IMG/VR virus record: IMGVR_UViG_3300024517_000002
Length of the DNA: 46,082 nucleotides
Strand: one strand, 5' to 3'
Origin: a virus
A program made the position numbers and the translations under genes. The first letter of the stretch is position 1; each line of letters begins with the position of its first letter. Below the pieces are notes generated by a model. The model did no database searches. It was given only the letters and a program-made list of their open reading frames with translations, and was not told where the DNA came from. This document shows, one piece after another, positions 22,382 through 46,082 of this stretch.

Positions 22382-22577
22382 TGTGGCCGGAGGTCTCGCC
22401 TCCCTTGCCCACCGCCTGAATAGCCAGGGATCCCTCCTGGCTATCTATCGCCAACACGTCGATCCCGTTCCAGAGATCCTTCGTGGGCGCATACATCGTT
22501 GCGGGCTTATAAACCGAAGCGACCGGCCAACCGAGCTGCCGGCACCACCTGATAGTTTTCCCGGAATAGTCAACCAT
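22074..22577 (-). CDS. Nuclease-like protein (possible PD-(D/E)XK, Hjc or VRR-NUC-like fold)
   Basis: Internal ATG (MVDYSGKTIRWCRQLGWPVASVYK...GIDVLAIDSQEGSLAIQAVGKGG...). The layout resembles archaeal Hjc-type resolvases, but the E-x-K motif is not intact. GC3 is higher than in the antisense + ORF. Confidence 0.45.
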   Translation of the reverse strand: MVDYSGKTIRWCRQLGWPVASVYKPATMYAPTKDLWNGIDVLAIDSQEGSLAIQAVGKGGETSGHITKLRKVVSSWPETLAEHRSKKHGEKEWGQVPPIHPLVLWMKAGNRFQIWAWEKVPTKPGGKLHVWRPRGFALTPASLTSEKRPVFSSLEIELPRPPGLQAP

Positions 22578-23022
22578 GGCTAAGAAGATAACGATTGAGC
22601 GGTTCCTGCGGAAGGTCGTGAAGGTTGAGGAGGTGAAGGGGTCCAGGGCGGTGGGTGGGTGCTGGCTATGGACAGCATCAACCAACGGTGGCTATGGGCA
22701 ATTCACCGCAGGGGGGAAGAACCGCCGCGCCCATCGATGGCTATGGGAGGTGGTCAACGGGCCCGTGCCCAAAGGCCTGGAGCTGGATCATCTCTGCCGA
22801 ACCAGAAACTGCGTCAACCCCGAACACCTCGAAGCCGTCACCCACCACGAGAACGTGCTTCGGGGAGAGTGCGGCCTAGCTACCGCCGCGCTCAACAGAG
22901 CAAAGACCGAATGCCCACGGGGGCACCCGTACAGCGTCGAGAACACTCGTTACCAAGGAACAGGAAGAGCCTGCATTACCTGCATAACCCGCAGAAGCCG
23001 AGAGAGGTACTTAGAACTATGA
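22576..23022 (+). CDS. HNH homing endonuclease
   Basis: GGCWLWTASTNGGYGQF...RAHRWLWE...LELDHLCRTRNCVNPEHLEAVTHHEN is the classical phage HNH_3-type signature. The C-terminal Zn module is CPRGHPYSVENT...GRACITC. Confidence 0.85.
   Translation: MAKKITIERFLRKVVKVEEVKGSRAVGGCWLWTASTNGGYGQFTAGGKNRRAHRWLWEVVNGPVPKGLELDHLCRTRNCVNPEHLEAVTHHENVLRGECGLATAALNRAKTECPRGHPYSVENTRYQGTGRACITCITRRSRERYLEL
22585..22590 (-). promoter_or_regulatory. -10-like TATCTT (minus strand), 7 nt upstream of ATG 22577
   Basis: It lies inside the 5' end of the divergent HNH gene. Confidence 0.3.
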
Positions 23023-24602
23023 CCTACCTACTGAAGCCCGAGGGCGTGAGCCCGAAGCGGGCGCTGTCCGAACACGAGACCCGCATCGCGCAGCTCGTGC
23101 CCGACGCGCTGAACATGGCCATCATGCTGCGCGACGGGAAGATCCCCAAGGCCCACCGCAAGCGAGCCTCCGATGCCGTGTGCGATTGGCTCGAGGAGTC
23201 CGTCCTGATTGGCGGAGAGATCATCAACGCCACGCGCAACCTGGACGTGTTAGATGATGGGGAGACTCCGGAGCCCGACCGACCCAGCCACGAAGACGAG
23301 GATGAACCCGATCCCGAGCCCGATCCCGAGCCCGATCCCGAGCCCGGCCTACTCATCCCCGCGGAACCGCCTGAGCGGTCTATTGACGAGGTGGGCCCCT
23401 TGATGGGCTGGATGGAGCCCGGCCTGCTCTGCATCCGGAACCCCGACGGAACCGGGGCGCCCGCCGTCCCCTGCCACGCCAACTATGCAGCGAAGGCCGT
23501 CAAGCTCCTCGATGGGCGCCCTGGGATCATCGACGTGCGCGGCGATTGTTCCGCCGGCACCAACAGCCTCGGCGGCGCTGGAACGCCGTGGGCGGCGGAT
23601 GGCGGCTACTGGGAGGGCAAGCCTCTACGCGTAGCCTTCCGGGGCGTCATCCCCGCGGCCACGCTGGGGGAGATCACGCTCCGTCAACGCATGAACAACG
23701 GCGATGAGCACGGCGTGGAGCTCCTGTGGCTGCAGAACCTCGCGGTCCAGGCTCGCTATCGATCCTGCATCGGGGCCCCCAAGGGGGATACCCTCGGAAC
23801 GCTGGTCATGCGGGGCGTTCGGCTGAAGCCGTTCCCGGCGTCCAAGGCTGCCGGTGAATACGGCGGCTATGGGTTCAAGTGGGGGATGCGGTGCAGCGCG
23901 CGGATGAACTACGACATCGACGGGCTGATCTGCGATCCGGTGCAGGAACACGTGATCTACGTGGACTCGCCGTATGGGTTCACGCGGTTCTGGAACGTGA
24001 CCCACCAGGACTCGTGGCGTACGGCCATCCAGGTGGTTTGCCGCTCGAAGGACAACCCAGGCCCCCCCGGAGGCGGGACCCTGTGGGTCAAAGACCTCTC
24101 GGCAACCTACTCAACGGAGGGCGAGGGCGGAGCGGCCTTCACTGTCGCGGGAGGGTTCGATGGGGACATCATCGCGGACGGCGTGTATGTGGTCGAGAAC
24201 CACGACGGTAAGCATGTCCACGGGGCTATCGTCATCTGGGTTGACGCCGGGCCCAAGCACGGGGCGTACCTGTACGACGCCGCCGGCGTCATCGAGGGGG
24301 TCGTCGAGGATTACGTGGCCTACACGGGGGCCGTGGTGCTGAATAACCTCAACATATCCCTCCCTGCGGGAGATCGGGACGTGGTTGCGGTGAGGGGGGC
24401 GGCCCACACCCAGATCGGGAGTCACGCCATCAACAGCCCGAAGGCCCACTTCTCGTTTGACGGGCCCTACCAGCTCGCCGGAAACCTGGCGCGGTTCAAC
24501 ATGGGCCCCATAACCACGCTAGAGGGACTTCCTGAGCTGGTCCGGAATGAGAAGATCGAGTTTCTCGCCCCCGTTGACGACCCCAAGGTCCGCTACCACT
24601 AG
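23019..24602 (+). CDS. Hypothetical 527-aa protein (possible beta-helix fold) with a DPEP tandem repeat
   Basis: An internal ATG overlaps the HNH stop (ATGA). The (DPEP)x4 linker lies at about residue 100. The C-terminal 350 aa have short beta-strand and Gly/Asn-turn periodicity. Confidence 0.6.
   Translation: MTYLLKPEGVSPKRALSEHETRIAQLVPDALNMAIMLRDGKIPKAHRKRASDAVCDWLEESVLIGGEIINATRNLDVLDDGETPEPDRPSHEDEDEPDPEPDPEPDPEPGLLIPAEPPERSIDEVGPLMGWMEPGLLCIRNPDGTGAPAVPCHANYAAKAVKLLDGRPGIIDVRGDCSAGTNSLGGAGTPWAADGGYWEGKPLRVAFRGVIPAATLGEITLRQRMNNGDEHGVELLWLQNLAVQARYRSCIGAPKGDTLGTLVMRGVRLKPFPASKAAGEYGGYGFKWGMRCSARMNYDIDGLICDPVQEHVIYVDSPYGFTRFWNVTHQDSWRTAIQVVCRSKDNPGPPGGGTLWVKDLSATYSTEGEGGAAFTVAGGFDGDIIADGVYVVENHDGKHVHGAIVIWVDAGPKHGAYLYDAAGVIEGVVEDYVAYTGAVVLNNLNISLPAGDRDVVAVRGAAHTQIGSHAINSPKAHFSFDGPYQLAGNLARFNMGPITTLEGLPELVRNEKIEFLAPVDDPKVRYH
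23310..23345 (+). repeat. 12-bp tandem repeat x3 (gatcccgagccc), encodes DPEP repeats
   Basis: Read directly from the sequence. Confidence 0.9.
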
Positions 24603-24631
24603 ACTCAGGCCGCAAGGTCTTCATTCATGAG

Positions 24632-24672
24632 AGCCCCCCGGTCGTTTGCATGGACGGCTGGGGGGCTTTTTT
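24632..24672 (+). terminator. Intrinsic terminator
   Basis: Stem agcccccc (24632-24639) with ggggggct (24660-24667), extendable inward. A T6 run follows at 24667-24672. Confidence 0.8.
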
Positions 24673-24673
24673 C

Positions 24674-24679
24674 TACGGT
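24674..24679 (+). promoter_or_regulatory. -10-like TACGGT, 6 nt upstream of ATG 24686 (leaderless type)
   Basis: TANNNT hexamer directly after a terminator. No SD lies before the ATG. Confidence 0.5.
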
Positions 24680-24685
24680 GCGGGC

Positions 24686-25174
24686 ATGAAGCTGCTTCCC
24701 GCCTTCATCGCCTTATTCGCCTCCTGCGCCCTGCCCCACTACGTCGAGGTGGCGGCCTCCTACGGCCGCGGAGCCCTTGGCTCATCCCTGGACCACGAGT
24801 ATGGCTCCGCGGAAATCCGAGCCGGGTACGTAGTAAAGCCCCTACCGGTAATCGTCAGGACGCGGTACACCCACGACCATGAAGATTTTATGCCTGGTTT
24901 GGTCCCACCGCTGGCCCTCGGAGGTGGAGATGTGGGGAATGATGGTCAAGAGGTGTCACCGGTGCGGAAAGGTGAAGGCCCGGACGATGACGGAGGGGGA
25001 GCGATACTACGCGAAGGCGCGAGCTCAGCGGGAGAGGCTCCATGGTGGGGGCGCGCCGCATTCCTGGCCCCCCTCGGAACGCTGATCGTCGGAATCATCG
25101 GGGCGTTCTATCACCGCGAGATCCGCGGCGCCGGCCGGAAGGTTTTCAAAAAGAAGCCGACCCGGGGTAAGTGA
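24686..25174 (+). CDS. Putative lipoprotein with a C-terminal transmembrane anchor (162 aa)
   Basis: MKLLPAFIALFASC has a lipobox-like FASC. The C-terminus is AAFLAPLGTLIVGIIGAFY followed by a basic tail. Confidence 0.55.
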   Translation: MKLLPAFIALFASCALPHYVEVAASYGRGALGSSLDHEYGSAEIRAGYVVKPLPVIVRTRYTHDHEDFMPGLVPPLALGGGDVGNDGQEVSPVRKGEGPDDDGGGAILREGASSAGEAPWWGRAAFLAPLGTLIVGIIGAFYHREIRGAGRKVFKKKPTRGK

Positions 25175-25233
25175 GCGGGATAGGTTTCTCGTGTGCAGCG
25201 AATCGCGCCGCACTCAACCCAAGGGAAAACTAA

Positions 25234-25809
25234 ATGCTTCGCTCTATCCTCGCCTCGGCCGTCATCCTCTCATCCTCCCTCGCCGCGCAAGGTGTGGACC
25301 TCCCCCCTGCCTCCAGCGCAATGTGGGAATCCATGGCGGTAGCTCACGAGGTCTCCACGCCTCAGATGGGATTCCTCGCCACGGGCAAGTTCCTCGATGA
25401 GATGGGCGCTCACTATAAGATCGACCCGGCGTGCATTGCCAACCACATGGACCGCGTAGGGCTTCCGGGCCCGTCGAACTACTTCTACGTGGACTCCGAC
25501 CCGTACAGCGGCTCCCCGCTCCTCCACAACACGCTGTACGTTTTCGACGCGGTGAAGTTCGGCCCGGTTTATGGCCGCTTCACCATCAAGCTCGGCGCCG
25601 GCTTCCCTGAACTGGGCTTGTGGGCTGCCACCTATCAGCAGGACCAGAAGGGCAACGACATACCCACGCTCCTCGACATCAGCCTCCGCGGCGCGTCCTT
25701 CATCTCCTCACTCGTGTTTGACACTGAAGACCCCCTGGCCTCGATGAAGGCGGAGTATGGCACCCGCCGAGGCCCCCAGGGAATCGCCACACTGGTTCCC
25801 GGTAAGTAA
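25234..25809 (+). CDS. Secreted protein (Sec signal, 191 aa)
   Basis: The signal is MLRSILASAVILSSSLAAQG. AAGGGAAAAC lies 4 nt upstream of the ATG. There is a weak E-S...S...G-x-L resemblance to the lytic transglycosylase motif (MWESMAVAHEVSTPQMGFL). Confidence 0.6.
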   Translation: MLRSILASAVILSSSLAAQGVDLPPASSAMWESMAVAHEVSTPQMGFLATGKFLDEMGAHYKIDPACIANHMDRVGLPGPSNYFYVDSDPYSGSPLLHNTLYVFDAVKFGPVYGRFTIKLGAGFPELGLWAATYQQDQKGNDIPTLLDISLRGASFISSLVFDTEDPLASMKAEYGTRRGPQGIATLVPGK

Positions 25810-25874: not shown

Positions 25875-25897
25875 GTCCCCACTAAACCCTCCCTGGC

Positions 25898-25906
25898 TGG
25901 TAGGGT
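25898..25906 (+). promoter_or_regulatory. Extended -10 TGGTAGGGT, 6 nt upstream of ATG 25913
   Basis: The same 9-mer and the same spacing occur at 29861-29869. Confidence 0.55.
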
Positions 25907-25912
25907 GCTCCC

Positions 25913-26080
25913 ATGAAGGAAAAGAAGAAGCCTAAGTCCAAGCTCCTGCGCCCACGCGAAGCCGGCTACATCGCCCCCCTCAACGTGAAGACCCAACGCC
26001 CCCGCCGTTGGACCGCGAACGAGCTCCTGATGCGGCAGCACGTCATGGGGACCATCAACCAGCGGAGGTGGATGGTTTGA
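25913..26080 (+). CDS. Small basic protein (55 aa)
   Basis: Manual ORF MKEKKKPKSKLLRPREAGYIAPLNVKTQRPRRWTANELLMRQHVMGTINQRRWMV. Confidence 0.45.
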   Translation: MKEKKKPKSKLLRPREAGYIAPLNVKTQRPRRWTANELLMRQHVMGTINQRRWMV

Positions 26081-27047: not shown

Positions 27048-27158
27048 GGAGCGACATACGAGGTCTGCGAGGATTGCTACCGCTGTCTATGCGAAGCCCG
27101 CCGCGCCGGACGACGCAGGTTCACCGCCCGGGGCCTTCCGCACATCCTCCCCGGTAAG

Positions 27159-27164
27159 TAGGAT
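27159..27164 (+). promoter_or_regulatory. -10-like TAGGAT, 7 nt upstream of ATG 27172
   Basis: TANNNT hexamer with no SD. Confidence 0.4.
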
Positions 27165-27171
27165 CCCGGGT

Positions 27172-27555
27172 ATGGATACTGAAACCAAAACGCCGATCCT
27201 CACGCCCCAGGTCCCTGCGGAATCCTACGAGCCGACAGGCCAGTGGGTAATCCTCAGACTCCCCGACACCCTCCAGGACCTCCTCGACCCCTCCGGTACG
27301 ACGAAGAAGCTGGCCCTCCCCGAGGGGGTCACCCGGTCAAGCCTGGTTGATGAGCAGCTGGCCCAGGTCGAAAAGATGGGCCGGGGGTCCTGGGACGGCC
27401 GATCCCAGACCTGGATTCAGCCCCCTTTCTCCGTCGGAGACTGGGTGGTTTTCCCTCACAGGTGCGCCGAGGGCATCAAGGTGCTCGATGAGGCCGGCCT
27501 GGCCCTCGTCAACGCCTCCGATATCATGCTCTACGTCCAAGCCGGGAAGGTCTAA
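27172..27555 (+). CDS. GroES/Cpn10-like co-chaperonin (putative)
   Basis: Aligns by eye to GroES: PTGQWVILRL with PLHDRVIVKR, and PFSVGDWVVF...GLALVNASDIMLYVQ with LDVKVGDIVIF...VLIMSESDILAIVE. Confidence 0.45.
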   Translation: MDTETKTPILTPQVPAESYEPTGQWVILRLPDTLQDLLDPSGTTKKLALPEGVTRSSLVDEQLAQVEKMGRGSWDGRSQTWIQPPFSVGDWVVFPHRCAEGIKVLDEAGLALVNASDIMLYVQAGKV

Positions 27556-27586: not shown

Positions 27587-27592
27587 TAAGCT
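27587..27592 (+). promoter_or_regulatory. -10-like TAAGCT, 6 nt upstream of ATG 27599
   Basis: Follows the small hairpin gggggc/gccccc at 27571-27586. Confidence 0.4.
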
Positions 27593-27598
27593 CCGCTC

Positions 27599-27853
27599 AT
27601 GCCCCCGACACCTGAGGACCTCGAGAAGGGGCTGGACGGCCTGGAGCAGGAGGTTACACGCCTCAAGCTCTGGGTCGCTGAGCATGACGGCCGCATCGAG
27701 GCTTGGTGGGCCAACCAGCACGCCTGGAATGAGAAGATCGAGGAGCGCCTCTGCGATCTAGCCCTCAGGCTCTCCGCCGTGGAGAAGCGGATGATGTGGT
27801 GGGCCGGAGCCGCGGCGGGCGCCGGTGGGTGGATGGGGAGTTACTTCGGGTAG
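27599..27853 (+). CDS. Coiled-coil protein with a Gly/Ala-rich hydrophobic C-terminus (84 aa)
   Basis: Track ORF. The C-terminus is MMWWAGAAAGAGGWMGSYFG. Confidence 0.55.
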   Translation: MPPTPEDLEKGLDGLEQEVTRLKLWVAEHDGRIEAWWANQHAWNEKIEERLCDLALRLSAVEKRMMWWAGAAAGAGGWMGSYFG

Positions 27854-28912: not shown

Positions 28913-29169
28913 TCCTGCCACGGCTCCTTTTCTTCCGTCTCTTCCTGTTGCAGCAACCCCAGGGCCTGAAGTCGCTGCAGGATGGTGTTTGCCACGATGT
29001 TCGTGCAGCCAAGGACGCGGGCTAGTTCGCCGACATCCGCGATGGATCCAGTCTCGTTGACCCACATCATGGCCTCCTTGTCTTTACGGCTGAGGTAGTC
29101 GCGGTTTCTCATTCGGCTGCGAAGGCGGATGGCCTTCAGCTGTTCGGTGGTTAGGCGTGAGGGGTCCAT
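28909..29169 (-). CDS. Winged-helix/HTH DNA-binding regulator (86 aa)
   Basis: SIADVGELARVLGCTNIVANTILQRLQALGLL resembles a MarR/Lrp-type HTH. It is the first gene of the reverse operon and faces the repeat-rich intergenic region. Confidence 0.55.
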   Translation of the reverse strand: MDPSRLTTEQLKAIRLRSRMRNRDYLSRKDKEAMMWVNETGSIADVGELARVLGCTNIVANTILQRLQALGLLQQEETEEKEPWQE

Positions 29170-29508
29170 CGTTGAGTCAAGCCTACCTGAAGAACCTCCG
29201 GAACGGGGAGGGTATCTGAAAGGGGCGTCGCGGGGGAGAAGATGCGGCATCGCTGCGCTCGCCTCTGACTCTATCGGGGTTTGGAGAGCAAGCTCTCTTT
29301 CCCGGAGGGGCCCTACATCGGGCCCCGGAACAGCTCGCTCTGCTCGCTGGAGACTGGGGCGCCGGGCTCGGCTCCCCGAGGCTCGGCAGGGCCCTCGCCC
29401 AAACACCCCCCCTCCCCCCGCAGATGCGGAGTTCAGAGAGGCCGACCTCCCGGGTTCTTTTTTTACCTCGCGCGCCGGGCCTAGCCCCCTGCGAGGGTTC
29501 AGCCCGCC

Positions 29509-29640
29509 TTACGGCGAGGTTGGGAAACCACCTGTTGGCGAGATGTGGCTGGCCATTCTCGATGCCAAGAAAACACCGGAGAGGGCATTGCGGAAGTTCC
29601 CCGCAAGAGCCACACTTGTTCCCGGTGTTGCTATTGACAT
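29509..29640 (-). CDS. Candidate leaderless micro-ORF (43 aa)
   Basis: On the minus strand, TAGGGT (29652-29647) lies exactly 6 nt upstream of ATG 29640. The peptide is MSIATPGTSVALAGNFRNALSGVFLASRMASHISPTGGFPTSP. Confidence 0.25.
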   Translation of the reverse strand: MSIATPGTSVALAGNFRNALSGVFLASRMASHISPTGGFPTSP

Positions 29641-29646
29641 TTCAGC

Positions 29647-29652
29647 ACCCTA
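29647..29652 (-). promoter_or_regulatory. -10-like TAGGGT (minus strand), candidate leftward promoter of the switch region
   Basis: Same hexamer and same N6 spacing as the + strand examples. Confidence 0.45.
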
Positions 29653-29774
29653 GCGCGCTTCACGGCGCGCCTCAAGACCGAACTCCCCCGGGGGTTTCGA
29701 AGGCTCGTCCTTGTGGCGGGCCTTTTTCGTATCTGTGGTGGTCTGCGGGGGCCGGACCACAATGGGCAGTAGGT

Positions 29775-29844
29775 CCAGTTTTCGGCCAGTTTTCAGATCC
29801 GAGCCAGATCCGAGCCAGATCCCGGCCAGTTTTCAGATCCGAGC
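29775..29844. repeat. Iteron- or operator-like direct repeat array
   Basis: The 22-mer cggccagttttcagatccgagc occurs at 29783-29804 and 29823-29844. CCAGTTTTC occurs 3 times. CAGATCCGAG occurs 3 times, plus one variant. The array ends 17 bp before the TGGTAGGGT promoter. Confidence 0.85.
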
Positions 29845-29860
29845 GCCTTTCCTCCCCCCG

Positions 29861-29869
29861 TGGTAGGGT
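29861..29869 (+). promoter_or_regulatory. Extended -10 TGGTAGGGT, 6 nt upstream of ATG 29876 (candidate rightward early promoter)
   Basis: Identical 9-mer and spacing to 25898-25906. Confidence 0.55.
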
Positions 29870-29875
29870 CGGGGG

Positions 29876-30196
29876 ATGAATGACGACAAGCTCACGGCCT
29901 ACGGCAAGCTCTACAAGGCCAAGATGGACGCGATGTTCTCCAGCGTTTTCGCCCCCGCCCTCGTCGAGGCCCGCTGCAGGGGCTCCCTGGAGGTCGTGTA
30001 CGCCCCGGAGCTGGCGAACACCTGCATGGGGCGCATGGGAGGGGCTTCCGTCATGCGGCCGTCCCTGGAGCAGGCTCACGCCCATATGGACACCGCGGAG
30101 TTCGTGGCCTGGGAAGATCAGCTATGGGACGACGCCAAGGCGAAGTCGGCGCTGATCGACTGCCTGAGGAGCCGCGTGGAGGCCCTGTCGTGCTGA
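29876..30196 (+). CDS. Hypothetical early protein (106 aa)
   Basis: Track ORF. Confidence 0.6.
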   Translation: MNDDKLTAYGKLYKAKMDAMFSSVFAPALVEARCRGSLEVVYAPELANTCMGRMGGASVMRPSLEQAHAHMDTAEFVAWEDQLWDDAKAKSALIDCLRSRVEALSC

Positions 30197-34093: not shown

Positions 34094-34099
34094 TAGGAT
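34094..34099 (+). promoter_or_regulatory. -10-like TAGGAT, 6 nt upstream of ATG 34106
   Basis: TANNNT-N6-ATG with no SD. Confidence 0.45.
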
Positions 34100-34105
34100 C
34101 CCGCC

Positions 34106-34585
34106 ATGGGTAAGATCAAGGCCGAGATGATGCGGAGCCTCGTGGAGGACTCGGGCGAGCTCCTCAACCCGAAGAACGGGAAGGAAAGCCCCGACAGCAC
34201 GCCGCTGGTTGGGTATATGCGCGAGCGGCTCAGCGCAACCGACGGCCACGGGCTGGCCAAGTTCTACGGGAAGAACACGCGCTCCGTCGTGGATCGGCTG
34301 ATCCAGGTGGCCCGCGGAGACCTCCTCGAGAAGCTCCTGTCCATGGACACCGATAAGATCGAGGCGAAGGATCTGCATATCGCCTTCGGCCACGCAACGC
34401 GGATGTGGCTTGAGGCTACGAAGCTCCTGCTTGCCTACACGGCTGGACGCCCGCGCGAGCACCGGGAAGTGGAGTCCGACGTGGAGCTCCCCGAAATCAT
34501 CGTCATCGGCCCCGATACGCCCGATGTAGTGATGCCGCTGCCGGAGAACGAAAAGGCTATTGCGGAAAACCTACCCCCCACGTAG
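34106..34585 (+). CDS. Hypothetical protein (159 aa; small terminase candidate by position only)
   Basis: Track ORF. Helical and charged. It is the only plausible TerS-sized gene upstream of TerL, but 4.6 kb separates them. Confidence 0.45.
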   Translation: MGKIKAEMMRSLVEDSGELLNPKNGKESPDSTPLVGYMRERLSATDGHGLAKFYGKNTRSVVDRLIQVARGDLLEKLLSMDTDKIEAKDLHIAFGHATRMWLEATKLLLAYTAGRPREHREVESDVELPEIIVIGPDTPDVVMPLPENEKAIAENLPPT

Positions 34586-34588
34586 GGT
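34560..34588 (+). promoter_or_regulatory. Promoter-like TTGCGG-N17-TAGGGT, 6 nt upstream of ATG 34595
   Basis: Read directly from the sequence. Confidence 0.45.
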
Positions 34589-34594
34589 TGGGTG

Positions 34595-34870
34595 ATGAAG
34601 CAAGAATCACTCAGCCTGTCCGGGAAAGGCTGGTCCGCTCACGCAACCGTCGGCCGCTCAGGCAAGCGCGGCGTCTTTCGCATCTCGGTACACGACTTCC
34701 ACCGAGAGGGTGTCTACGTTCATGACGTGGACCCCCTGGGCATAGTAGAGGGCATGAGGGGCAAGGGTACTGAGCCTGAGCCCGACGGGACGGAGCCGGC
34801 GGCGCCCGACTCCGACCTGGAATCAGATGAAGACGAGACTTCCGACGCCTCCAGGGACGCCTTCGAATAA
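34595..34870 (+). CDS. Hypothetical protein with an acidic tail (91 aa)
   Basis: Track ORF. ATG 34595 is preferred over GTG 34592. Confidence 0.5.
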   Translation: MKQESLSLSGKGWSAHATVGRSGKRGVFRISVHDFHREGVYVHDVDPLGIVEGMRGKGTEPEPDGTEPAAPDSDLESDEDETSDASRDAFE

Positions 34871-34893: not shown

Positions 34894-34934
34894 GGAGGCC
34901 GCGGGTTTTAGGACGCCCGCGGCCTCCGTCTTTT
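34894..34934 (+). terminator. Intrinsic terminator
   Basis: 12-bp perfect stem ggaggccgcggg with cccgcggcctcc, then gtcTTTT. Confidence 0.8.
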
Positions 34935-34936: not shown

Positions 34937-35027
34937 GCACCCGTAGCTCAATGGCAAGAGCACCGCCTTTCTGGGGCTCCGAGCCGCAATTCGGGCGGCG
35001 ATGGCCTGTTCGAATCAGCCCGGGGCA
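34937..35027 (+). tRNA. tRNA-like element (degenerate or interrupted; possibly a pseudo-tRNA)
   Basis: The D-arm is canonical (GCTC-AATGGCAA-GAGC, 34946-34961). The T-arm has a GTTCGAATC loop (35008-35016). Only 4 of 7 acceptor base pairs form. The anticodon stem CCGCC/GGCGG encloses 26 nt instead of 7. Confidence 0.3.
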
Positions 35028-35045
35028 CCCTACTATGCGCAGCCC

Positions 35046-36314
35046 ATGGCTAAACTTCTCGCGCTCTTCCTCGCCACCGCCGCGGTGTTCGTAACCCTGC
35101 CCGTTCTTGTCAGGCCCTCACCCCCGCCCCCGGATATCGTCCTGATCATCGTGGATGACCTCTCGCGTTCGGACCTGGACCTGATCCACACGCCGAACCT
35201 CGACGCCCTCGCTGCGTCCGGGGTAACCTTCACGCGAGGCTACTCCATGCCGACATGCGCACCGACTCGGTGGTCCATGCTCTATGGCGAGTTCAACCCG
35301 AGGCACTTCCGGTCCGAATGTCGCGACAACCCGACGAACCCGTTCCCGCACCCCCTCGCCGCTCCGATTCTCGACCCAAGCCGCCCAAACCTCTCGAATG
35401 TCCTAACTGCCGCGGGTTACACCGCTGGGTTCTTCGGGAAGTGGCACACGGGGTCGGTCATGAGTGGGTGGCAGAATGCCCCGTTGGAGGTAGGTTTCAC
35501 CGCGTGGCGAGCCGGGGGCCCGCCGCTTCTTTCTGCGAGCGGTGGGGCTTGTAACAGCTTCGGATTTTACGACTGGCAACGGGTAGACGATGGAACGATC
35601 ACGCAGGAGACTGGATACGCCACTAAAGCTCAGGTGGACGCGGCCATTGATTGGGCTTCCGGCACTCCGGGCCCAAGGTTCGCGATTGTCTCGTTTCACA
35701 GTCCGCACATACCGCTACATCTACCTCCCGAGGAGGTGGGGCGAACCGATCGCGAGCAGTTTGAGGCCATGGTTAGAAATCTCGACGTGGAGGTGGGCCG
35801 CCTCCTTGGCGCGATCCCGGACGACGCTTGGGTCTTCTTCATCGCAGACAACGGGACCTTCTCCGGCAACGTCGCCCCCGGCGTTGACCCCGACAAGGCC
35901 AAGCGGACAACCTTCGAAGGAGGAATAAATGTCCCTGTACTCGTTCGAGGACCAGGTGTATTGGGTGGACGAGAGTGCGGCCGACTGGTTTGCACTACAG
36001 ACATTCTTGCAACGCTCGCTGAAATCGTCGGCGCTCCTCCTCCCTTATGGGCTGAAGACTCGCTCTCTTTCCTCCCGCTGGTTCACGGACCCACCGGCCC
36101 ACCCACCCGCACCATCGGATACGCAGGCCACGTTCGAGACGACGGAACCGAGCACGACGAGGCCGCCTTTACGGAGAGGTACAAGCTGCGCCGGGTCTTT
36201 GGCGTGGAAACGCTCTACGACCTGAAGGCCGACCCTCTCGAGGAGAACCCCCTGCCCGCCGGCGCGCTGCCCGGGACCTGGGCGAAGCTCTCCGCGTTCA
36301 TCGACGCCCAATAA
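35046..36314 (+). CDS. Formylglycine-type sulfatase (arylsulfatase family) with a signal peptide
   Basis: DIVLIIVDDLSRSDL...SMPTCAPTRWSMLYG contains the C-x-P-x-R signature. GKWH and HSPHIP motifs are also present. The N-terminal hydrophobic signal is MAKLLALFLATAAVFVTLPVLV. Confidence 0.85.
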   Translation: MAKLLALFLATAAVFVTLPVLVRPSPPPPDIVLIIVDDLSRSDLDLIHTPNLDALAASGVTFTRGYSMPTCAPTRWSMLYGEFNPRHFRSECRDNPTNPFPHPLAAPILDPSRPNLSNVLTAAGYTAGFFGKWHTGSVMSGWQNAPLEVGFTAWRAGGPPLLSASGGACNSFGFYDWQRVDDGTITQETGYATKAQVDAAIDWASGTPGPRFAIVSFHSPHIPLHLPPEEVGRTDREQFEAMVRNLDVEVGRLLGAIPDDAWVFFIADNGTFSGNVAPGVDPDKAKRTTFEGGINVPVLVRGPGVLGGRECGRLVCTTDILATLAEIVGAPPPLWAEDSLSFLPLVHGPTGPPTRTIGYAGHVRDDGTEHDEAAFTERYKLRRVFGVETLYDLKADPLEENPLPAGALPGTWAKLSAFIDAQ

Positions 36315-37210: not shown

Positions 37211-37216
37211 TACCCT
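37211..37216 (+). promoter_or_regulatory. -10-like TACCCT, 6 nt upstream of ATG 37223
   Basis: TANNNT-N6-ATG. Confidence 0.4.
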
Positions 37217-37222
37217 GAAAGG

Positions 37223-37630
37223 ATGGCTAAGCGCAAGAAGAAGGTCTCCCGCAAGAAGAAGGTCTCCCGCAAGAAGAAGGCCAAGCGGGCCGCCCCCCTG
37301 GCTTTCTCCGTGCCCGCGGCTGAAATCGAAGCAAGCACCTATGAGCGCCGCCGATGCCCGCGCTGCGATGGAGCCATGCCCGCCCGCCAAGGCTGGCGCC
37401 CCGTGCCCGATGCCGGGAACTGGCGCCGCCGCGTCCGCCGCTGCGAAACCAAGCGGTGTGGCTTCGCCGAGGTCTTCATCGAGCTCCCGCAGGGGGACCT
37501 CGAGGAGTACGTACGCGTACATGAGATCGTGGCTAGTTTCCGCCAGGTGGTCACGTCAATGCAAATGACAGGCACCCCCGCCCCGAACCTGTCGCGCCCC
37601 CTGCGTAAGCTCCTCGGGCTGGCCAGCTGA
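37223..37630 (+). CDS. Basic Zn-ribbon protein with an N-terminal RKKKVS repeat (135 aa)
   Basis: An internal ATG of track ORF 36863..37630. Reads MAKRKKKVSRKKKVSRKKKAKR...CPRCDG...CETKRC. Confidence 0.55.
   Translation: MAKRKKKVSRKKKVSRKKKAKRAAPLAFSVPAAEIEASTYERRRCPRCDGAMPARQGWRPVPDAGNWRRRVRRCETKRCGFAEVFIELPQGDLEEYVRVHEIVASFRQVVTSMQMTGTPAPNLSRPLRKLLGLAS
37232..37280 (+). repeat. 18-bp tandem repeat x2.7 (cgcaagaagaaggtctcc)
   Basis: Read directly from the sequence. Encodes RKKKVS units. Confidence 0.9.
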
Positions 37631-39182: not shown

Positions 39183-39188
39183 TAGGGT
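39183..39188 (+). promoter_or_regulatory. -10-like TAGGGT, 12 nt upstream of GTG 39201
   Basis: Same hexamer as the leaderless set but with longer spacing, which implies a very short leader. Confidence 0.35.
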
Positions 39189-39200
39189 TACCGTCCCTTC

Positions 39201-40871
39201 GTGGCACGAGAAGGCAAGGTCGTACGCGTAGGGGGGAAACTCTTTCGCCAGAGTTATCAGCCCTATGGGGTTGCCCGTCAGCTCTGGCAAACCACCGAGC
39301 GGGAGATCCTCGCCGAGTCCGGGGCCGGCACGGGAAAGACGCGCTCAATCCTGGAGTGGGCTCGATGGGCCTGCGAGCGACACCCCGGCACGCGCGGCGT
39401 CTTCTCCAGGCTCACCAAGAAGTCGATGCGGGATACCGTGCTGCCCGAATGGGAGGACGTGGTACTCGGCCGGGGGCACCCCATGCTCCACGGGACGGCC
39501 TCCCGCATGCACCGGGAGAACTACATTCACCCCAACGGGTCGGAGATCATCCTTCACGAGCTCCAGAATCCCGATCGATTCCTTTCCGCACAGTATGACT
39601 TCTTCATAACCTTTCAGGGGGAAGAGGTCCCGAACGACGAGGTTTACCAGAAGGCCCTCACCCGACTCCGTAACGGGGTCCTTCCCCACCCACGCGCCAT
39701 CAACGACGTGAACCCAGGCGTCCAATCGCACTGGCTCAACGTCCGCGGAGATATCAAGCTCTGCCGCCCCTGCTACGACGGCCGCGGAGAGCCCGGGATC
39801 CCCCAGGTGGTCGAGATGGAGGTTTCCGGGGATATACCCACCTGCCCCCGCTGCCACTCCTTGGAGTACCGGCCCCAGCTCCTCCGCCTTCTCTACCGAC
39901 ACGAACACAACCCCCGGTGGTTTGACCAGGACGAGCGCGTCTGGACCCCCGCCGGCAAGGAGTATGTCTTCCTCACCCTGGGATCCCTCCGCGGGGTCCA
40001 GCGCGAACGCCTGCTAAAGCACCGGTGGGTTGCCGAGGAGGGGATCATTCTCGAGGAGTGGGACCCCAACATCCACTACGGGGGCGGCCAGCTCTTCCCC
40101 CCGGAAGCCGACCCCACGGAGAACGACTGCCCCCTCTGGCGCTTCCGCATGCCGGACGGAGAGACCTACACGTTCGAGTGGTTCGGCGCCGGCGTCGATT
40201 GGGGTTTCGTCGATCCTGGCGTCATCACGGTATGGGGCGTCACCGCGGCGCACGAGTACGTGCTCATTGAGGAGCATTGCTGCAGCGGGAAGCAGATCGA
40301 GTATTGGGCCACGCTCGCCGACCAGCTGCGAGCCAAGTACGGCATCCGCTGGTTTGCTTGCGACCCCTCCCGCCCCGACTTCATCGAGGCCTTCAACAAG
40401 AGGTTCGGCGGGAAGTTCACACGCGATGGGGCCTGCCACGCCCTCTCCGCAGACAACACGCTCCGCTCGAAGCCGAAGGCCAAGGGGAAGGACCTCGTGG
40501 GCGTGGACCTCATGCGGGAGGCCCTCATGGATGAATCCGGGGTCAGCCGGCTCTACGTGTGGGCCGACGCGGCCAGCCGGATCGACAAGGAGCGCAAGCG
40601 GTCAGGTCAGCCGGTGGTCTTCCGGGATGAACTCCTCCAGTGGACCTGGGCGAAGAACTCCGACGGGAAGACTCTCGAGAAGCCGGACCCCAACGCCGAG
40701 GACCACATCATGGACGCCACGCGGTACTTCCTGTCGCTGGCGTGGCTCACGCGCTACCGAAACTCAGACCGCGCCCTGAAGTACCTGCCGGGGACCGTGG
40801 GGCACGCCCTCAATTGGGAGGAGCGTCAGCGGAAGAAGCGCAAGGATCGACGCCGGAGACGTGGGGCGTGA
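39201..40871 (+). CDS. terL: Terminase large subunit
   Basis: Walker A is GAGTGKT. The C-terminal RNaseH-like nuclease motifs are GAGVDWGFVDPGVITVWG, WFACDPSRPDFIEAF and EDHIMDATRYFL. 556 aa. Confidence 0.85.
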   Translation: MAREGKVVRVGGKLFRQSYQPYGVARQLWQTTEREILAESGAGTGKTRSILEWARWACERHPGTRGVFSRLTKKSMRDTVLPEWEDVVLGRGHPMLHGTASRMHRENYIHPNGSEIILHELQNPDRFLSAQYDFFITFQGEEVPNDEVYQKALTRLRNGVLPHPRAINDVNPGVQSHWLNVRGDIKLCRPCYDGRGEPGIPQVVEMEVSGDIPTCPRCHSLEYRPQLLRLLYRHEHNPRWFDQDERVWTPAGKEYVFLTLGSLRGVQRERLLKHRWVAEEGIILEEWDPNIHYGGGQLFPPEADPTENDCPLWRFRMPDGETYTFEWFGAGVDWGFVDPGVITVWGVTAAHEYVLIEEHCCSGKQIEYWATLADQLRAKYGIRWFACDPSRPDFIEAFNKRFGGKFTRDGACHALSADNTLRSKPKAKGKDLVGVDLMREALMDESGVSRLYVWADAASRIDKERKRSGQPVVFRDELLQWTWAKNSDGKTLEKPDPNAEDHIMDATRYFLSLAWLTRYRNSDRALKYLPGTVGHALNWEERQRKKRKDRRRRRGA

Positions 40872-41494: not shown

Positions 41495-41727
41495 GCCCCG
41501 GCCTTCTCGCGCCGACGAACCCTCGCCGCCTTGCACGGGTTGCACATCGCCTCCCTATGGGCCGGGCTACCCCCGGAGCACTTCCGGTCCGGGTAGAACT
41601 TCAGGCGCCGCCCGCACGCCGTCTTTGCCCAGAAGAGCCCCCCTCCCGCGTTCTCCAGCCGCTCGTCAAGCAGGTGGAAACGAAGCCTTGTCGTCGTGCT
41701 CATGTACCAGCGGTCCGACGCATTCAT
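41491..41727 (-). CDS. Cys-rich small protein (78 aa)
   Basis: Internal ATG (MNASDRWYMSTTT...), with GGAGG just upstream. Contains C...C...CNPC. Confidence 0.45.
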   Translation of the reverse strand: MNASDRWYMSTTTRLRFHLLDERLENAGGGLFWAKTACGRRLKFYPDRKCSGGSPAHREAMCNPCKAARVRRREKAGA

Positions 41728-41810
41728 GACCTCCAGCCTACACGAAAAAAGCCCCCGGTCCCCTCTTGCGAAGAAGGACCAGGGGCCAGCGCGAGCCAAC
41801 CCAACAGGCG

Positions 41811-43006: not shown

Positions 43007-43156
43007 TCAGCCGGCCAGGGCCTGAGCCACAACCCCCATAGCCACGCGGCAGTCGATCGCGTTACCGATCAGACGCCCCGCCAGCTCCCGGCCATCCGGA
43101 AGCTGGTAACCATCGGGAAAGCTCATGCCCCGGCTCAATTCTACAGCCTCCAGTCG
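43007..43156 (-). pseudogene. C-terminal fragment of a second C5 DNA methyltransferase (motifs IX-X only)
   Basis: Manual translation reads RLEAVELSRGMSFPDGYQLPDGRELAGRLIGNAIDCRVAMGVVAQALAG*. No in-frame upstream catalytic domain exists, and this frame carries an upstream stop at 43256-43258. Confidence 0.45.
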
Positions 43157-43389: not shown

Positions 43390-43609
43390 GCTCGCGCTTG
43401 CCCACGAGGCCCCCGTGTACCTTCTGAGCTACGAGGGACTCGTCCAGGACCCCGAGGCGGTCGGGCGGGACCTCTTCGAGTGGCTCAGCCTCCCGTGGGT
43501 GGCGTGGCCTGTGGAGGCGTACGCGAACCCTGAGACGCCGGAGCGGGGGCGTCTGTTCGACGGGAATCGGAAGTGGCTGGACGCGCGGTCTGGTGGCTCA
43601 ACAGGATGA
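43370..43609 (+). CDS. Lone + strand ORF (79-111 aa) with a sulfotransferase-C-terminus-like motif
   Basis: LLSYEGLVQDPEAVGRDLFEWLSLPW resembles the YEDL..DP....FLG region of sulfotransferases. GC3 is very high. It may start at TTG 43274. It overlaps the 3' tail of the sigma gene convergently. Confidence 0.4.
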   Translation: MRTAVFTLALAHEAPVYLLSYEGLVQDPEAVGRDLFEWLSLPWVAWPVEAYANPETPERGRLFDGNRKWLDARSGGSTG

Positions 43610-44171
43610 CGTATTCAGGATCGTCGATGTGCCTGCGCGCCCGGGTGTGCAGTCCACGCGCCGCGTGCCCCGAAGGCCGTGAGAGAACCGTGGCCACATC
43701 GCTCCAGGCCAGGTGAAAGAGCCCGCGTAGCATGAGCACCGAGCGCCCTTCGACCTCCTGGTTCCAGAGCAACTGACACCCCGGAGGCTTGAGGGCCACG
43801 AAGTTCTCGAAGTGCGGCACCAGGATCAATCCGAAATCGTCACCGGCCCCAGCGGTCTTCGTCCTCTTATCGTGCCCCTTGCGCGCACTCAGGAGGTGGT
43901 TGCGGGCTATGCCCAGAAGCCAGGCCCGAAAGCCCCGCTCGGTATCCGCGCGCATCGAGCGGATGGCCCCGAAGCAACAAACGACCGTATCCTGGAAGAC
44001 GTCCTCGGCATCCACTCCGTGCATCCCCATGCGCAGTGCGATGCCGCCGATTCCGGAAACGAGTGCGCGACGTGAGCGTGAGATCAGTCGCGCCAGAGCG
44101 TCTCCGTCCCCCAGACGGGCGAGCTCCAGGTCGAAGTTCAGGTCATTTAGTTTCTGTAGATTCTCTTTCAT
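43485..44171 (-). CDS. ECF-type RNA polymerase sigma factor (sigma-70 family)
   Basis: Region 2 is DAEDVFQDTVVCCFGAIRSMRADTERGFRAWLLGIARNHLLSARK. Region 4 is GRSVLMLRGLFHLAWSDVATVLSRPSGHAARGLHTRARRHI. ATG 44171 is ATGA-coupled to the upstream micro-ORF. The last 40 or so codons have low GC3. Confidence 0.7.
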   Translation of the reverse strand: MKENLQKLNDLNFDLELARLGDGDALARLISRSRRALVSGIGGIALRMGMHGVDAEDVFQDTVVCCFGAIRSMRADTERGFRAWLLGIARNHLLSARKGHDKRTKTAGAGDDFGLILVPHFENFVALKPPGCQLLWNQEVEGRSVLMLRGLFHLAWSDVATVLSRPSGHAARGLHTRARRHIDDPEYVILLSHQTARPATSDSRRTDAPAPASQGSRTPPQATPPTGG

Positions 44172-44254: not shown

Positions 44255-44397
44255 CGGGACCACCCCCACGAGACCGTCAGCCGCCAGGTGCCGAGGTGAA
44301 AGGCTACGTACTTGAGGCTCTCGCAGCGGGTGAACACGTTCTGGAAGATGCCGAGGGCCGTCTGGCCCTTCACGCGGCGTTGGAAGTGGACTCTCAT
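44251..44397 (-). CDS. Micro-ORF (48 aa, MRVHFQRRVKGQTALGIFQNVF...)
   Basis: ATGA-coupled at both ends. Its start context tcccgATGAGAgtccac duplicates that of the 28-aa ORF. Confidence 0.35.
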   Translation of the reverse strand: MRVHFQRRVKGQTALGIFQNVFTRCESLKYVAFHLGTWRLTVSWGWSR

Positions 44398-44585
44398 CGG
44401 GAGGCCCCCTCGCGGTACGTAGCCACGCGGACCCTCACGCGGACCTCGATTTCAAGCTCCGCGGCGAACAGCTGACGGCACTCGTCAGCGGCGAACGCGG
44501 CGGACTCCGGCGAATCGCAGCGGTCGAAGCCGACCCATTCCCCGGTCTGGTCCTGAAATTCAACGACCCATTCTTCTACGGTCAT
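44394..44585 (-). CDS. Acidic small protein (63 aa)
   Basis: An internal ATG of track ORF 44394..44636, with GAGAGGGAAAGCC upstream. It is the first gene of the reverse operon. Confidence 0.5.
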   Translation of the reverse strand: MTVEEWVVEFQDQTGEWVGFDRCDSPESAAFAADECRQLFAAELEIEVRVRVRVATYREGASR

Positions 44586-44687
44586 CTGGCTTTCCCTCTC
44601 AAGGTCGGGCACAAAGCGGATTGCTGGGGCCCTCACACCCGATATCGGCCCCCGCCACCTCCAACCTGAGCCCCTTCTGCGGATTCC

Positions 44688-44716
44688 TTGAAATTCCCAC
44701 GGGTTCGCCCTACGGT
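44688..44716 (+). promoter_or_regulatory. Promoter-like TTGAAA-N17-TACGGT, 6 nt upstream of the portal ATG 44723
   Basis: The -35 element is at 44688-44693, the spacer is 17 nt, and the -10 element is at 44711-44716. Six C residues follow, then ATG. Confidence 0.55.
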
Positions 44717-44722
44717 CCCCCC

Positions 44723-46082
44723 ATGCTTGCCACCGGTGCCCAAGCCCTATGGCGTGAGATCAGCAACGCCGAAGAGCGGCGTGACTCGAAGCTGCGATCC
44801 CTTGAGGCTCAGATCAAGCGATACGCCGGCCCCTGGTATGACGGGTCCCCAGCGGACGACGAGGAGCCCGACTACGAGAACCATTCCTACGAGGCCATAT
44901 CGGCGTTTGTCCCCTCAACCGTGGCTCAGAAGCCCAGGGTGAAGATTTCGACGCGCCGGCCGACGGCCCAGAGGGAAGTTGCAAAGGCAATCCAGGGTCA
45001 TGTGAACCGGTGGATTAGGGACTCGCATTTCAAAGACGTGCTGGAGCACCTAGCCGTGGACTTCCAGTTCCGGTGGTCCGTGGCGCTCGTCAGCGTGAAG
45101 CCGCGGCCGGAAGCCTATGAGTCCGATGACCCGCTGCTGACCCAGCAGGTGGACCGCATATCGCCGAAGGACTTCTGCTGGGACGCGATGGCCCCCGAGC
45201 CGAACAAGGCGCGGTGGATGGCGCACCGGTACAAGGTGGACCACGCGGACTTGATCAGGCGGGCCCGCGCTGACGCCAAGCTGCCGGAGGATGAACGCGA
45301 GGGATGGAACGTGGAGGCCGTCGAGGCGTTGACCGCCGGCATGGCGAACGCCCGCGTGAGCGACGCCGCGGGCAGCGACGAGCGGGACTACCAGCTGGAC
45401 CGGCAGGAGGTCGAGCTGTACGACATCTACATTGCCGAGGAGACGAACCACGTCGAGCAGGGCCGCGGCGAGCAATACACGCAGGCCAACGGGTTCGCCG
45501 GCACGCTGCGTACGCTGGCGGTCACCGCGGCCGGGACGCCGCTCATCAGCGGGGGCCACGTCAAGCAGCTTGAGGGGGACGGCGACGATACCGGCGTGGA
45601 GATCCGCAGCCCGCGGCCGTACTTCGGCCCGCCGCAGGGCCCCTACGTCATCGGCGGCGCGTTCATCGTGCCGGACAAGAACGAGCCGCTGAGCCCGCTG
45701 GTAGTGACGCAGGCCCAGGCCGACAATCTGAACGCGTTCACGGCCTCGATGGTCCGCCAGGGGCTGAACTACTGCAAGAAGATCATCGCCTCAGGTATCG
45801 ACAAGGACGACGCCGAGGCCATCAACGACGCCAAGCACGACCACCTTACGGTCGTCTCCAACCCGATCGACGTCCGCTCCCAGCTCCAGAGCTTCGAGAC
45901 CGGCGGCATCACCCAGCAGCACGTCGTCATCGCCCAGTGGCTCAAGGACATCCTGGAGCGCGTCAGCGGGCAGAACGCCGCCCTACGCGGTGAGATCGAG
46001 TCGGGAGCCACGGCCACCGCCGTGAGCGAAGGCGTCGAGGCTGGCAAGGCACGCGCCCAATACCCTCAGGATAAGTTCATCT
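44723..46082 (+). CDS. Portal protein (putative), 5' part; the ORF is open to the window end and continues at 128..795
   Basis: Manual translation from ATG 44723 (MLATGAQALWREISNAEERR...) has no stop before the window end. It is in frame with ORF 67..795 once the 127-nt overlap is removed, giving about 675 aa in total. It sits directly upstream of the scaffold-like and capsid-like genes. The ORF track omits it because no stop lies inside the window. Confidence 0.6.
   Translation, partial: MLATGAQALWREISNAEERRDSKLRSLEAQIKRYAGPWYDGSPADDEEPDYENHSYEAISAFVPSTVAQKPRVKISTRRPTAQREVAKAIQGHVNRWIRDSHFKDVLEHLAVDFQFRWSVALVSVKPRPEAYESDDPLLTQQVDRISPKDFCWDAMAPEPNKARWMAHRYKVDHADLIRRARADAKLPEDEREGWNVEAVEALTAGMANARVSDAAGSDERDYQLDRQEVELYDIYIAEETNHVEQGRGEQYTQANGFAGTLRTLAVTAAGTPLISGGHVKQLEGDGDDTGVEIRSPRPYFGPPQGPYVIGGAFIVPDKNEPLSPLVVTQAQADNLNAFTASMVRQGLNYCKKIIASGIDKDDAEAINDAKHDHLTVVSNPIDVRSQLQSFETGGITQQHVVIAQWLKDILERVSGQNAALRGEIESGATATAVSEGVEAGKARAQYPQDKFI
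45956..46082. repeat. Terminal direct repeat, copy 2 (identical to 1..127)
   Basis: Same 127-nt string as 1..127. This implies a circular or terminally redundant genome of 45,955 bp. Confidence 0.95.

Follow-up and report, generated by a model that had tools for sequence, protein, structure and literature searches.

TANNNT boxes set against start codons throughout an uncultured phage genome: candidate -10 elements of leaderless mRNAs beside Shine-Dalgarno-led genes

In the virus record IMGVR_UViG_3300024517_000002 of IMG/VR (46,082 nucleotides (nt), all of which were analysed and are called the window below) a hexamer of the form TANNNT stands six or seven nucleotides in front of a series of start codons. 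This arrangement raises the question whether the hexamer acts in the DNA as the -10 element of a promoter, such that transcription would begin on the start codon itself, whether it acts in the RNA as a Shine-Dalgarno (SD) site, or whether it reflects chance and the choice of gene starts. We favour the first answer with a probability of roughly 0.78: the boxes would be -10 elements that place the transcription start site (TSS) at or within 1–2 nt of the start codon, and the genes expressed in this manner would coexist with SD-led genes. The predicted density of such starts is unusually high, with about 12 of 65 genes, or about 16 when those with very short leaders are included, and the portal and terminase genes are among them.

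The position of TANNNT was counted relative to 65 gene starts that were taken from the JGI, ENA and Logan annotation of contigs identical to the window and, for the structural block, from our own codon-statistics calls. Because external start calls were used, circularity was avoided in this count. TANNNT occurs at a spacing of 6 nt in 8 genes and at a spacing of 7 nt in 2 genes. Other offsets hold a mean of 0.275 TANNNT each, which gives a Poisson p of 6e-10 for the spacing-6 count, and 20,000 shuffles of the upstream regions yielded a mean of 0.35 and a maximum of 5. Independently of any gene calls, TANNNT-N6-ATG occurs 10 times on the two strands of the whole genome, and 8 of these ATG triplets are the first codon of an open reading frame (ORF) with a strongly positive coding score. 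An unsupervised scan of 64 X1X2NNNX6 patterns at 51 offsets (Bonferroni threshold 1.5e-5) ranked TANNNT at spacing 6 first with p=2e-9; with the runner-up at 8e-4, it was the sole significant pattern. The excess of the motif is real and far beyond chance. In the 12 sites with a spacing of 6 or 7 nt (6 nt in 9 of them, 7 nt in the others) the purine expected at +1 is the first base of the start codon, ATG in 11 cases and GTG in one. A preliminary description of this DNA, made by eye from the letters, had listed 11 such hexamers and start codons, all of which are present where it had placed them. Its claim of a strong excess at a fixed offset was confirmed by the position-specific count against shuffled controls that it had proposed as a check. 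The expectation of about 1% from base composition pointed in the right direction, but the figure was conservative, as we measured about 0.4–0.5%, and the gene number of about 75 has to be corrected to about 65–68.

The surroundings of the hexamer carry further traits of promoters. In an alignment of the 12 sites on the hexamer, TT is found at -35/-34, with a spacer of exactly 17 nt, in 6 of 12 sites, compared to a mean of 0.97 TT per column (permutation P=0.0004 for any column reaching 6) and to none of 15 control first genes. A full TTG at -35 is present in only 2 sites, and 4 sites have neither a -35 element nor a TGn extension of the -10 box. Replacement of the -35 element by a TGn extension is the classical compensation rule, and the TGG-extended -10 box occurs only at 25913 and 29876, both of which are devoid of a -35 element. 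A composite motif, CCTNCC-N7-TAGGNT, is present in 4 copies (25888, 27146, 29851 and 34570) compared to 0.10 expected, although this comparison flatters our reading, since the motif was defined after the sites had been seen and its p-value is therefore optimistic. Every copy lies 6–7 nt before an ATG and places a C at -25 relative to the A of this ATG; the hexamer is TAGGAT in one of the four sites and TAGGGT in the other three. CCTCCCC alone is not enriched in the genome (17 found, 19 expected); only its fixed spacing to TAGGRT is. The four CCTNCC-TAGGRT genes are small ORFans in the non-structural region, and the portal gene with the structural block has TTGAAA-N17-TACGGT. Finally, the boxes at 24686, 41727(-) and 25913 are preceded, at distances of 1, 4 and 27 nt, respectively, by the ends of strong intrinsic terminators (-26 to -34 kcal/mol; -26.5 kcal/mol at 25913), and any promoter must therefore lie against the start codon there, with no room for a leader.

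From the position of the motif, its enrichment, the accompanying promoter features and its conservation, all of which are observed, we infer the position of the TSSs, leaderless translation and the type of sigma factor used. About 12 genes, corresponding to about 40% of the transcription units, would have sigma-70/sigma-A-type promoters with a -10 hexamer TANNNT (consensus TAGGGT/TACGGT) followed by a gap of 6, sometimes 7, nt to the start codon. RNA polymerase would take the first base of this codon, A (or G), as +1 and produce an mRNA without 5' leader and without SD site, on whose 5'-terminal AUG or GUG ribosomes would start directly. Four further genes with a box 9–11 nt upstream would receive leaders of 2–5 nt, whereas operon-internal genes and some first genes would rely on ordinary SD sites (AAGGA, GGAG). 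The promoters would come in different flavours, one with a TT(G/C) -35 element and a 17-nt spacer and a CCTNCC/TAGGRT sub-class with C at -25, in which two members use TGG for the -35 element. Many units would be insulated by a terminator directly before the promoter. As the likely host lineage seems to have the same architecture, the phage would be adapted to the expression machinery of its host. The earlier proposal that two initiation modes coexist in one genome, -10-adjacent starts beside SD-led genes, thus appears to hold, as far as it can be judged from the DNA. AGGAG sites are indeed found at the capsid-region genes 3651 and 5083, whereas gene 31459, which had been given as a fibre gene with the same site, has GGAG and nothing marks it as a fibre gene.

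Table 1. Start-codon-adjacent TANNNT boxes and related features of the window (dG, free energy of pairing or folding in kcal/mol; aa, amino acids; ECF, extracytoplasmic function).
Feature	Coordinates	Strand	Remarks
TACGGT-N6-ATG	24674..24688	+	162-aa gene; -10 box adjoins terminator 24627-24672
Intrinsic terminator	24627..24672	+	19-bp stem followed by TTTTTT; dG -33.8; ends 1 nt before -10 box
CCTCCCT-N6(TGG)-TAGGGT-N6-ATG	25888..25915	+	C at -25, extended -10, no -35; 55-aa gene
CCTCCCC-N6-TAGGAT-N7-ATG	27146..27174	+	Composite promoter; TTCCGC at -35
TAAGCT-N6-ATG	27587..27601	+	No SD capacity in hexamer (dG -1.7)
CCTCCCC-N6(TGG)-TAGGGT-N6-ATG	29851..29878	+	First gene of rightward operon; adjoins 706-bp gene-free region
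TAGGAT-N6-ATG	34094..34108	+	5 nt past terminator-like hairpin with T-run (dG -15.1)
CCTACCC-N6-TAGGGT-N6-ATG	34570..34597	+	TTGCGG at -35; ambiguous site
TACCCT-N6-ATG	37211..37225	+	No SD capacity in hexamer (dG -0.9)
TAGGGT-TACCGT-N6-GTG	39183..39203	+	Upstream of large terminase, GTG 39201
TTGAAA-N17-TACGGT-N6-ATG	44688..44725	+	Portal gene, head of structural gene block; -35 match 5/6
TAGGCT-N7-ATG	41725..41740	-	4 nt after strong terminator 41741-41790 (dG -29.1)
TATCTT-N7-ATG	22575..22590	-	TTCCGC at -35; ORF 22074-22577, start disputed
TTGAGG-N17-TAGGGT-N6-ATG	29638..29675	-	Palindromic spacer; 43-aa ORF, coding score -16
TAGTAT-N10-ATG	20769..20787	+	Start 20785; very-short-leader class
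TAGGCT-N10-ATG	29167..29185	-	Start 29169; first gene of leftward operon; very-short-leader class
TAGAAT-N11-ATG	43124..43143	-	Start 43126; very-short-leader class
TACTAT-N9-ATG	35031..35048	+	Start 35046; sulfatase-like gene, just past tRNA-like element
CCAGGAG-N8-GTG	3636..3653	+	SD-led example; major capsid protein
AAAGGAG-N9-ATG	5067..5085	+	SD-led example
TAGGTT, 47 nt upstream of ATG, with AAGGGA SD	25181..25236	+	Same type of -10 box in front of a leadered, SD-led gene
ECF-like sigma factor gene (Sigma70_r2)	43485..44171	-	Phage-encoded

Our analysis added several sites that had not been listed before, namely 41727(-), 39201 and 35046 as well as 20785, 29169(-) and 43126(-) at a spacing of 10–11 nt (Table 1). 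The element in front of the portal gene is predicted to be a complete promoter of the sigma-70 type that yields a leaderless start. For the 162-aa gene, external callers chose ATG 24650, a codon within the hairpin of -33.8 kcal/mol. Since 24650 thus sits inside the terminator, ATG 24686 is the better and likely the true start, in agreement with the earlier choice. The locus of 22577(-) is less clear: external callers put a plus-strand ORF at 21844–22419 instead, but codon statistics gave +19 for the minus-strand ORF 22074–22577 and -36 for the plus-strand ORF. The minus-strand ORF is therefore favoured, and the site is still disputed. No gene was placed in 29170–29875 by any external caller. 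The element at 29640(-) is nevertheless a plausible promoter by its composition and may drive a non-coding or long-leader leftward transcript. ATG 35046 is the probable true start of the sulfatase-like gene.

The ECF-like sigma factor of the phage provides a link to a host. Over a stretch of 534 bp (window 43612–44139), its gene is 98.5% identical in nucleotide sequence to a gene (L034 10096–10629) on a 285-kb contig of the metagenome-assembled genome (MAG) GCA_965662355.1. The context in the MAG is chromosomal (aldolase, RecQ, sigma, SDR, TPR, FG-GAP/ASPIC, PGI), and the same gene order is found in four other metagenomic contigs, whose sigma protein is 48–53% identical. Because the same neighbours are kept in related bacteria, these sequences indicate that the gene is resident in the host lineage and entered the phage by recent capture. 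In the phage, it has an N-terminus and an upstream region of its own, the latter being GATAAT-N9-ATG. The G+C content of the MAG locus (63.5%) agrees with that of the phage (64%); other contigs of the host lineage have 68–71%. Neighbours of the sigma gene in the MAG pass the Pfam thresholds for DUF1570, PF07638 (ECF sigma) and UnbV_ASPIC, and in NCBIfam both sigma proteins match best the model 'Planctomycetaceae-specific subfamily 1', with scores below its cut-off. We take these families to be typical of, but not exclusive to, Planctomycetota, and on this basis the MAG lineage probably belongs to this phylum.

The same start architecture is found in this lineage. Among 24 distinct host-lineage genes, 6 carry TANNNT 6–8 nt before the ATG, compared to only 2 hexamers over the other 42 offsets. 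The SDR orthologue keeps the box across genomes (TAAACT-N6, TAGACT-N6 and TAGACT-N8), and so does the aldolase orthologue (TATGAT-N8 and TATCAT-N6). The preliminary description had suggested a comparison with the start usage of candidate hosts and had named Actinobacteria and Deinococcus-Thermus. While the comparison was rewarding for the MAG lineage, where a quarter of the genes share the geometry, the two phyla could not be upheld, as the 98.5% identical sigma gene in a Planctomycetota-like MAG is the sole direct link and terminase matches of 24–28% are scattered over many phyla. Nor do leaderless genes with TANNNT point to these phyla specifically, since others have them too (PMC3160421).

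How well do other explanations account for these data? The reading of the pattern as chance or as an artefact of gene calling, in which starts were picked for an upstream TANNNT, could invoke the choice of starts by eye in the preliminary description and the fact that 24686 and 22577(-) differ from automated calls. However, the enrichment persists with starts from independent pipelines that do not score TANNNT. It persists as well in the caller-free count over the whole genome and in the unsupervised scan, which together with the 65-start count and its shuffles refute this reading and leave it a vanishingly small probability. A weightier alternative, which we still regard as unlikely, concerns the TAGGRT hexamers. 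They might be SD-like sites (AGGR at a spacing of 7 nt) on longer transcripts of ordinary leadered genes, with the flanking T residues being incidental. No SD-type 4-mers are more enriched than AGGA and AGGG at spacing 7, the place that genuine internal SD cores occupy as well (AAGGA at 7 in genes 14644 and 20316). Five sites (TAGGGT/TAGGAT) have AGGR exactly at the position of an SD core and could serve as SD on read-through transcripts; the earlier statement that no SD lies between hexamer and ATG is thus accurate for the 6-nt spacers, which contain no SD site, but it overlooks the AGGR that these five boxes themselves hold at SD spacing. TAGG is also found at this position, without the final T, in three non-candidate genes (33529, 41545(-) and 28731(-)), and the portal orthologue in L002, a relative described below, has the SD-like TTAGGGGT instead of TANNNT. 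In addition, the distant relatives L008 and L009 are SD-led, and nearly all genes with the motif are ORFans, so that most of their starts are uncheckable by homology. Most of the instances listed originally stand; the weak ones are 29640(-), a 43-aa ORF with a non-coding score, and 34595, where the TAG of TAGGGT doubles as the stop codon of the upstream gene (gap 9). The points on AGGR and TAGG, on the relatives, on the ORFans and on 34595 weigh against the boxes being -10 elements of leaderless genes. On the other hand, 7 of the 12 hexamers at spacing 6 or 7 have no AGGR core (TACGGT at two sites, TAAGCT, TACCCT, TACCGT, TATCTT and TAGGCT) and can therefore not function as SD. The mean anti-SD pairing is -4.2 kcal/mol at the spacing-6 candidates compared to -7.2 kcal/mol at internal genes. 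Among the nine genes with AGGR at -11 to -8, the T residues on both flanks are present in all 4 candidates and in none of the 5 others. TT at -35 with 17 nt, the TGn extension and the C(-25) block are traits of promoters rather than of ribosome binding, and terminators finish 1–5 nt before several boxes. Even for 34595, pure coincidence was rejected in part, as its CCTNCC block and the TT of its -35 element stand at the spacings of the other sites. The TAGGRT subset might also have a dual role as -10 box in the DNA and as weak SD on read-through RNA, which might account for the G-rich interior of TAGGRT.

Another alternative accepts the promoters as real but has them read by a phage-modified polymerase or by the phage ECF-like sigma factor rather than by the primary sigma factor of the host. 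CCTNCC-TAGGRT would then be a temporally regulated class, and the transcripts could still be leaderless. The phage does encode a sigma-like protein, 4 promoters have the composite motif with C at -25 in common, and a parallel exists in the late promoters of the phage Lalka27a, for which a phage factor was proposed. Still, we judge this scenario to be improbable: ECF sigma factors normally read promoters of the GGAAC/CGT type and not TANNNT, the sigma gene of the phage has a nearly identical counterpart in the host chromosome, and chromosomal genes of the host lineage show the same TANNNT geometry without any phage factor. Moreover, the four genes with the composite motif lie in the non-structural region and not in the late block. 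A broader proposal, which goes beyond leaderless expression itself, appears possible but doubtful to us. According to this proposal, the phage infects an uncultured, probably Planctomycetota lineage (Planctomycetes-Verrucomicrobia-Chlamydiae group, PVC) in which about 1/4 of the chromosomal genes have a -10 box 6–8 nt before the start, and the CCTNCC(-25)-TAGGRT class would reflect the same unusual polymerase recognition, a spacer element combined with a G-rich -10 box, as in the Thermus phage Lalka27a.

Leaderless expression of the type that we propose for the window is known from other systems. TANNNT some 12 bp ahead of the translation start has been published as the signature of leaderless genes, with its highest frequencies in Deinococcus-Thermus (about 39%) and Actinobacteria (about 19%), and it is further known from Aquificae, delta-proteobacteria and Acidobacteria (PMC3160421). 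Experiments in D. radiodurans identified the motif as the -10 region of leaderless-gene promoters, with a -35 element at 17 bp boosting it (PMC12340547). A survey of non-SD genes counted Planctomycetes among the phyla that have few SD genes and show upstream biases, which it ascribed to leaderless mRNA and/or ribosomal protein S1 (PMC5397173). The window phage resembles high-GC bacteria (Zheng et al. 2011; Zhong et al. 2025; leaderless genes of mycobacteria and Streptomyces) in the TAnnnT that stands a few bp ahead of the start and whose G+C-rich interior is uninformative, in its coexistence with a GGAG-type ribosome-binding motif, in the optional -35 element at 17 bp and in the proportion of about 20–40% of genes. 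It differs from them in that the elements belong to a phage genome, in the very narrow range of spacings (9 of 12 sites at 6 nt) and in a linked lineage that seems to fall outside the two phyla from which this mode is best known.

For phages, the majority of the middle and late mRNAs of phiYS40 are leaderless (PMC3594737). In Lalka27a, mapping placed TSSs on the A or G of start codons, promoters with a TGx extension lack a -35 element, and 16 late promoters have TAGGGT with an invariant C at -25 (bioRxiv 10.64898/2026.04.20.719267). The window phage shares with Lalka27a and phiYS40 the TANNNT -10 box and the predicted TSS on the first base (A or G) of the initiator codon, which was mapped in Lalka27a and is deduced from the sequence here. 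It further shares with Lalka27a some TGx-extended promoters without -35, a class with a TAGGGT -10 box and C at -25, and the dense promoters with terminators between collinear genes. In contrast to Lalka27a, the C(-25) of the window phage belongs to an extended CCTNCC block, the genes behind its TAGGRT/C(-25) promoters are small ORFans of the non-structural region and not late structural genes, and a sigma-like gene is present, which Lalka27a does not have. No sequence relationship of the window phage to Thermus phages was found, and its host link is probably a Planctomycetota-like bacterium. The association of the TAGGGT/C(-25) class with late structural genes and with a Thermus host was not observed in the window phage. 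The recurrence of this class outside Thermus phages is open to assay with purified polymerases. The classic leaderless phage transcript is the lambda cI mRNA from PRM, which starts at the A of AUG. The similarity lies in a phage gene starting at the A of AUG, as predicted from the sequence for the window phage. However, lambda cI is a single regulated case in an SD-dominated genome, whereas the candidates in the window are distributed over the genome and include portal and terminase.

Conservation of the boxes in relatives is mixed. In L002, whose terminase is 72% identical to that of the window, the orthologue of gene 37223 has TACTAT-N8-ATG and its protein begins with MAKK (MAKR in the window). 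An in-frame ATG of the L002 terminase is preceded by TACGAT-N8, and two further starts of L002 have TAGGAT-N7 and TGG-TAGGTT-N7. Among relatives of the terminase, TANNNT lies 6–8 nt before the start while the hexamer itself varies: TACCGT-N6-GTG in the window, TAGTGT-N6-GTG in L016, where the box directly follows a terminator, TAGCCT-N6-GTG in L011, TAGCCT-N7-GTG in L008, TACGAT-N8-ATG in L002 and TATTCT-N8-ATG in L012. Even if the relatives are few, this mixture fits the reported evolutionary switching between initiation modes (PMC3160421). L009, a distant temperate relative with an integrase and a sigma factor of its own, has a repeated TTGACC-N16-TAGCGC-N9 before a TTG or GTG start, at ~2794(-) and 11794(+) and including the portal gene, which may be another type of promoter set against the start codon. 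Several of the terminase homologues P0003, P0006, P0018 and P0019 are 840–910 aa long and have Hint or LAGLIDADG intein domains; the terminase of the window has no intein.

The window represents a circularly assembled genome of an uncultured phage with a G+C content of about 64%. Its real length is 45,955 bp, as positions 1–127 and 45956–46082 are exact duplicate ends of 127 bp, an assembly overlap of a circular or terminally redundant genome. The portal ORF spans this junction and encodes 675 aa in the JGI record. The genome corresponds to JGI contig Ga0255048_10000177 and was found again in 13 contigs of JGI, ENA and Logan. A megablast search with half of the window found no close relative among cultured phages. 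The capsid and sigma proteins had no phage matches in tblastn searches, the terminase and a protein of 1881 aa gave only matches of 22–33% to unrelated phages, and single-protein scans of viral and genome collections had no matches. Alignment-based scans yielded only short contigs or prophage matches of 24–28% over many phyla, which are uninformative with regard to the host. In about 40 proteins, Pfam and PHROGs recognised only HNH, sigma-70 region-2, sulfatase-like, portal and large terminase proteins.

Some additional elements were noticed in the vicinity of the boxes. A tRNA at 34937–35027 (+) scores 37.2 bits with Rfam (gathering score 29) and is missed by ARAGORN. In its anticodon loop, about 22 nt are inserted, which include a mini-hairpin. 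The element follows directly after a terminator (34894–34927), and its 3' half extends over the annotated start of the sulfatase gene (35001). Possible identities are an intron-bearing or degenerate tRNA or the remnant of an att site. The sulfatase-like gene (35001–36314) is 50% identical to L005 4920–6245. L005 was rejected as a relative, since it shares the sulfatase but is an unrelated phage with a Mu-like portal and a G+C content of 53%. This suggests that the sulfatase-like gene is a mobile auxiliary gene among phages of the same habitat. The gene-free region of 706 bp between divergent operons (29170–29875) contains tandem CAGATCCGAGC repeats (29794–29822), CCAGTTTTC repeats, a palindrome (GGCGCGCC GTGAA GCGCGC) within the minus-strand promoter and a terminator-like site of the plus strand near 29700–29727. 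The region resembles a regulatory switch or an origin. The start of an HNH_3 homing-endonuclease gene (22576–23022, +; 54.6 bits) and that of the divergent minus-strand ORF fall on the same CATG, and the promoter region of each gene is therefore inside the other gene. This arrangement may be the result of a mobile endonuclease insertion.

Automated callers appear to misplace starts or strands where genes are leaderless. For example, they put a start into a terminator hairpin (24650), called the plus-strand ORF 21844–22419, which has non-coding statistics and overlaps the better minus-strand ORF 22074–22577, extended the sulfatase ORF into the tRNA-like element (35001) and called the L002 terminase at an internal GTG (L002 5858) next to GAGGAG. 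Standard gene callers are thus unreliable with regard to starts in this type of genome.

In conclusion, the arrangement described here is, to the extent that DNA sequence allows, a well-supported further example of a known mode of expression, and a map of candidate promoters and terminators was obtained for a phage that consists almost wholly of ORFans. The sigma gene ties this phage to a specific uncultured lineage with the same start architecture. The known range of -10-adjacent, predicted leaderless expression would thereby be extended beyond Actinobacteria and Deinococcus-Thermus. If the broader proposal on host and polymerase recognition is true, a phylum not previously described as using leaderless expression would rely on it as a major mode, and a promoter type would either be conserved across distant phyla or have evolved repeatedly in phages.

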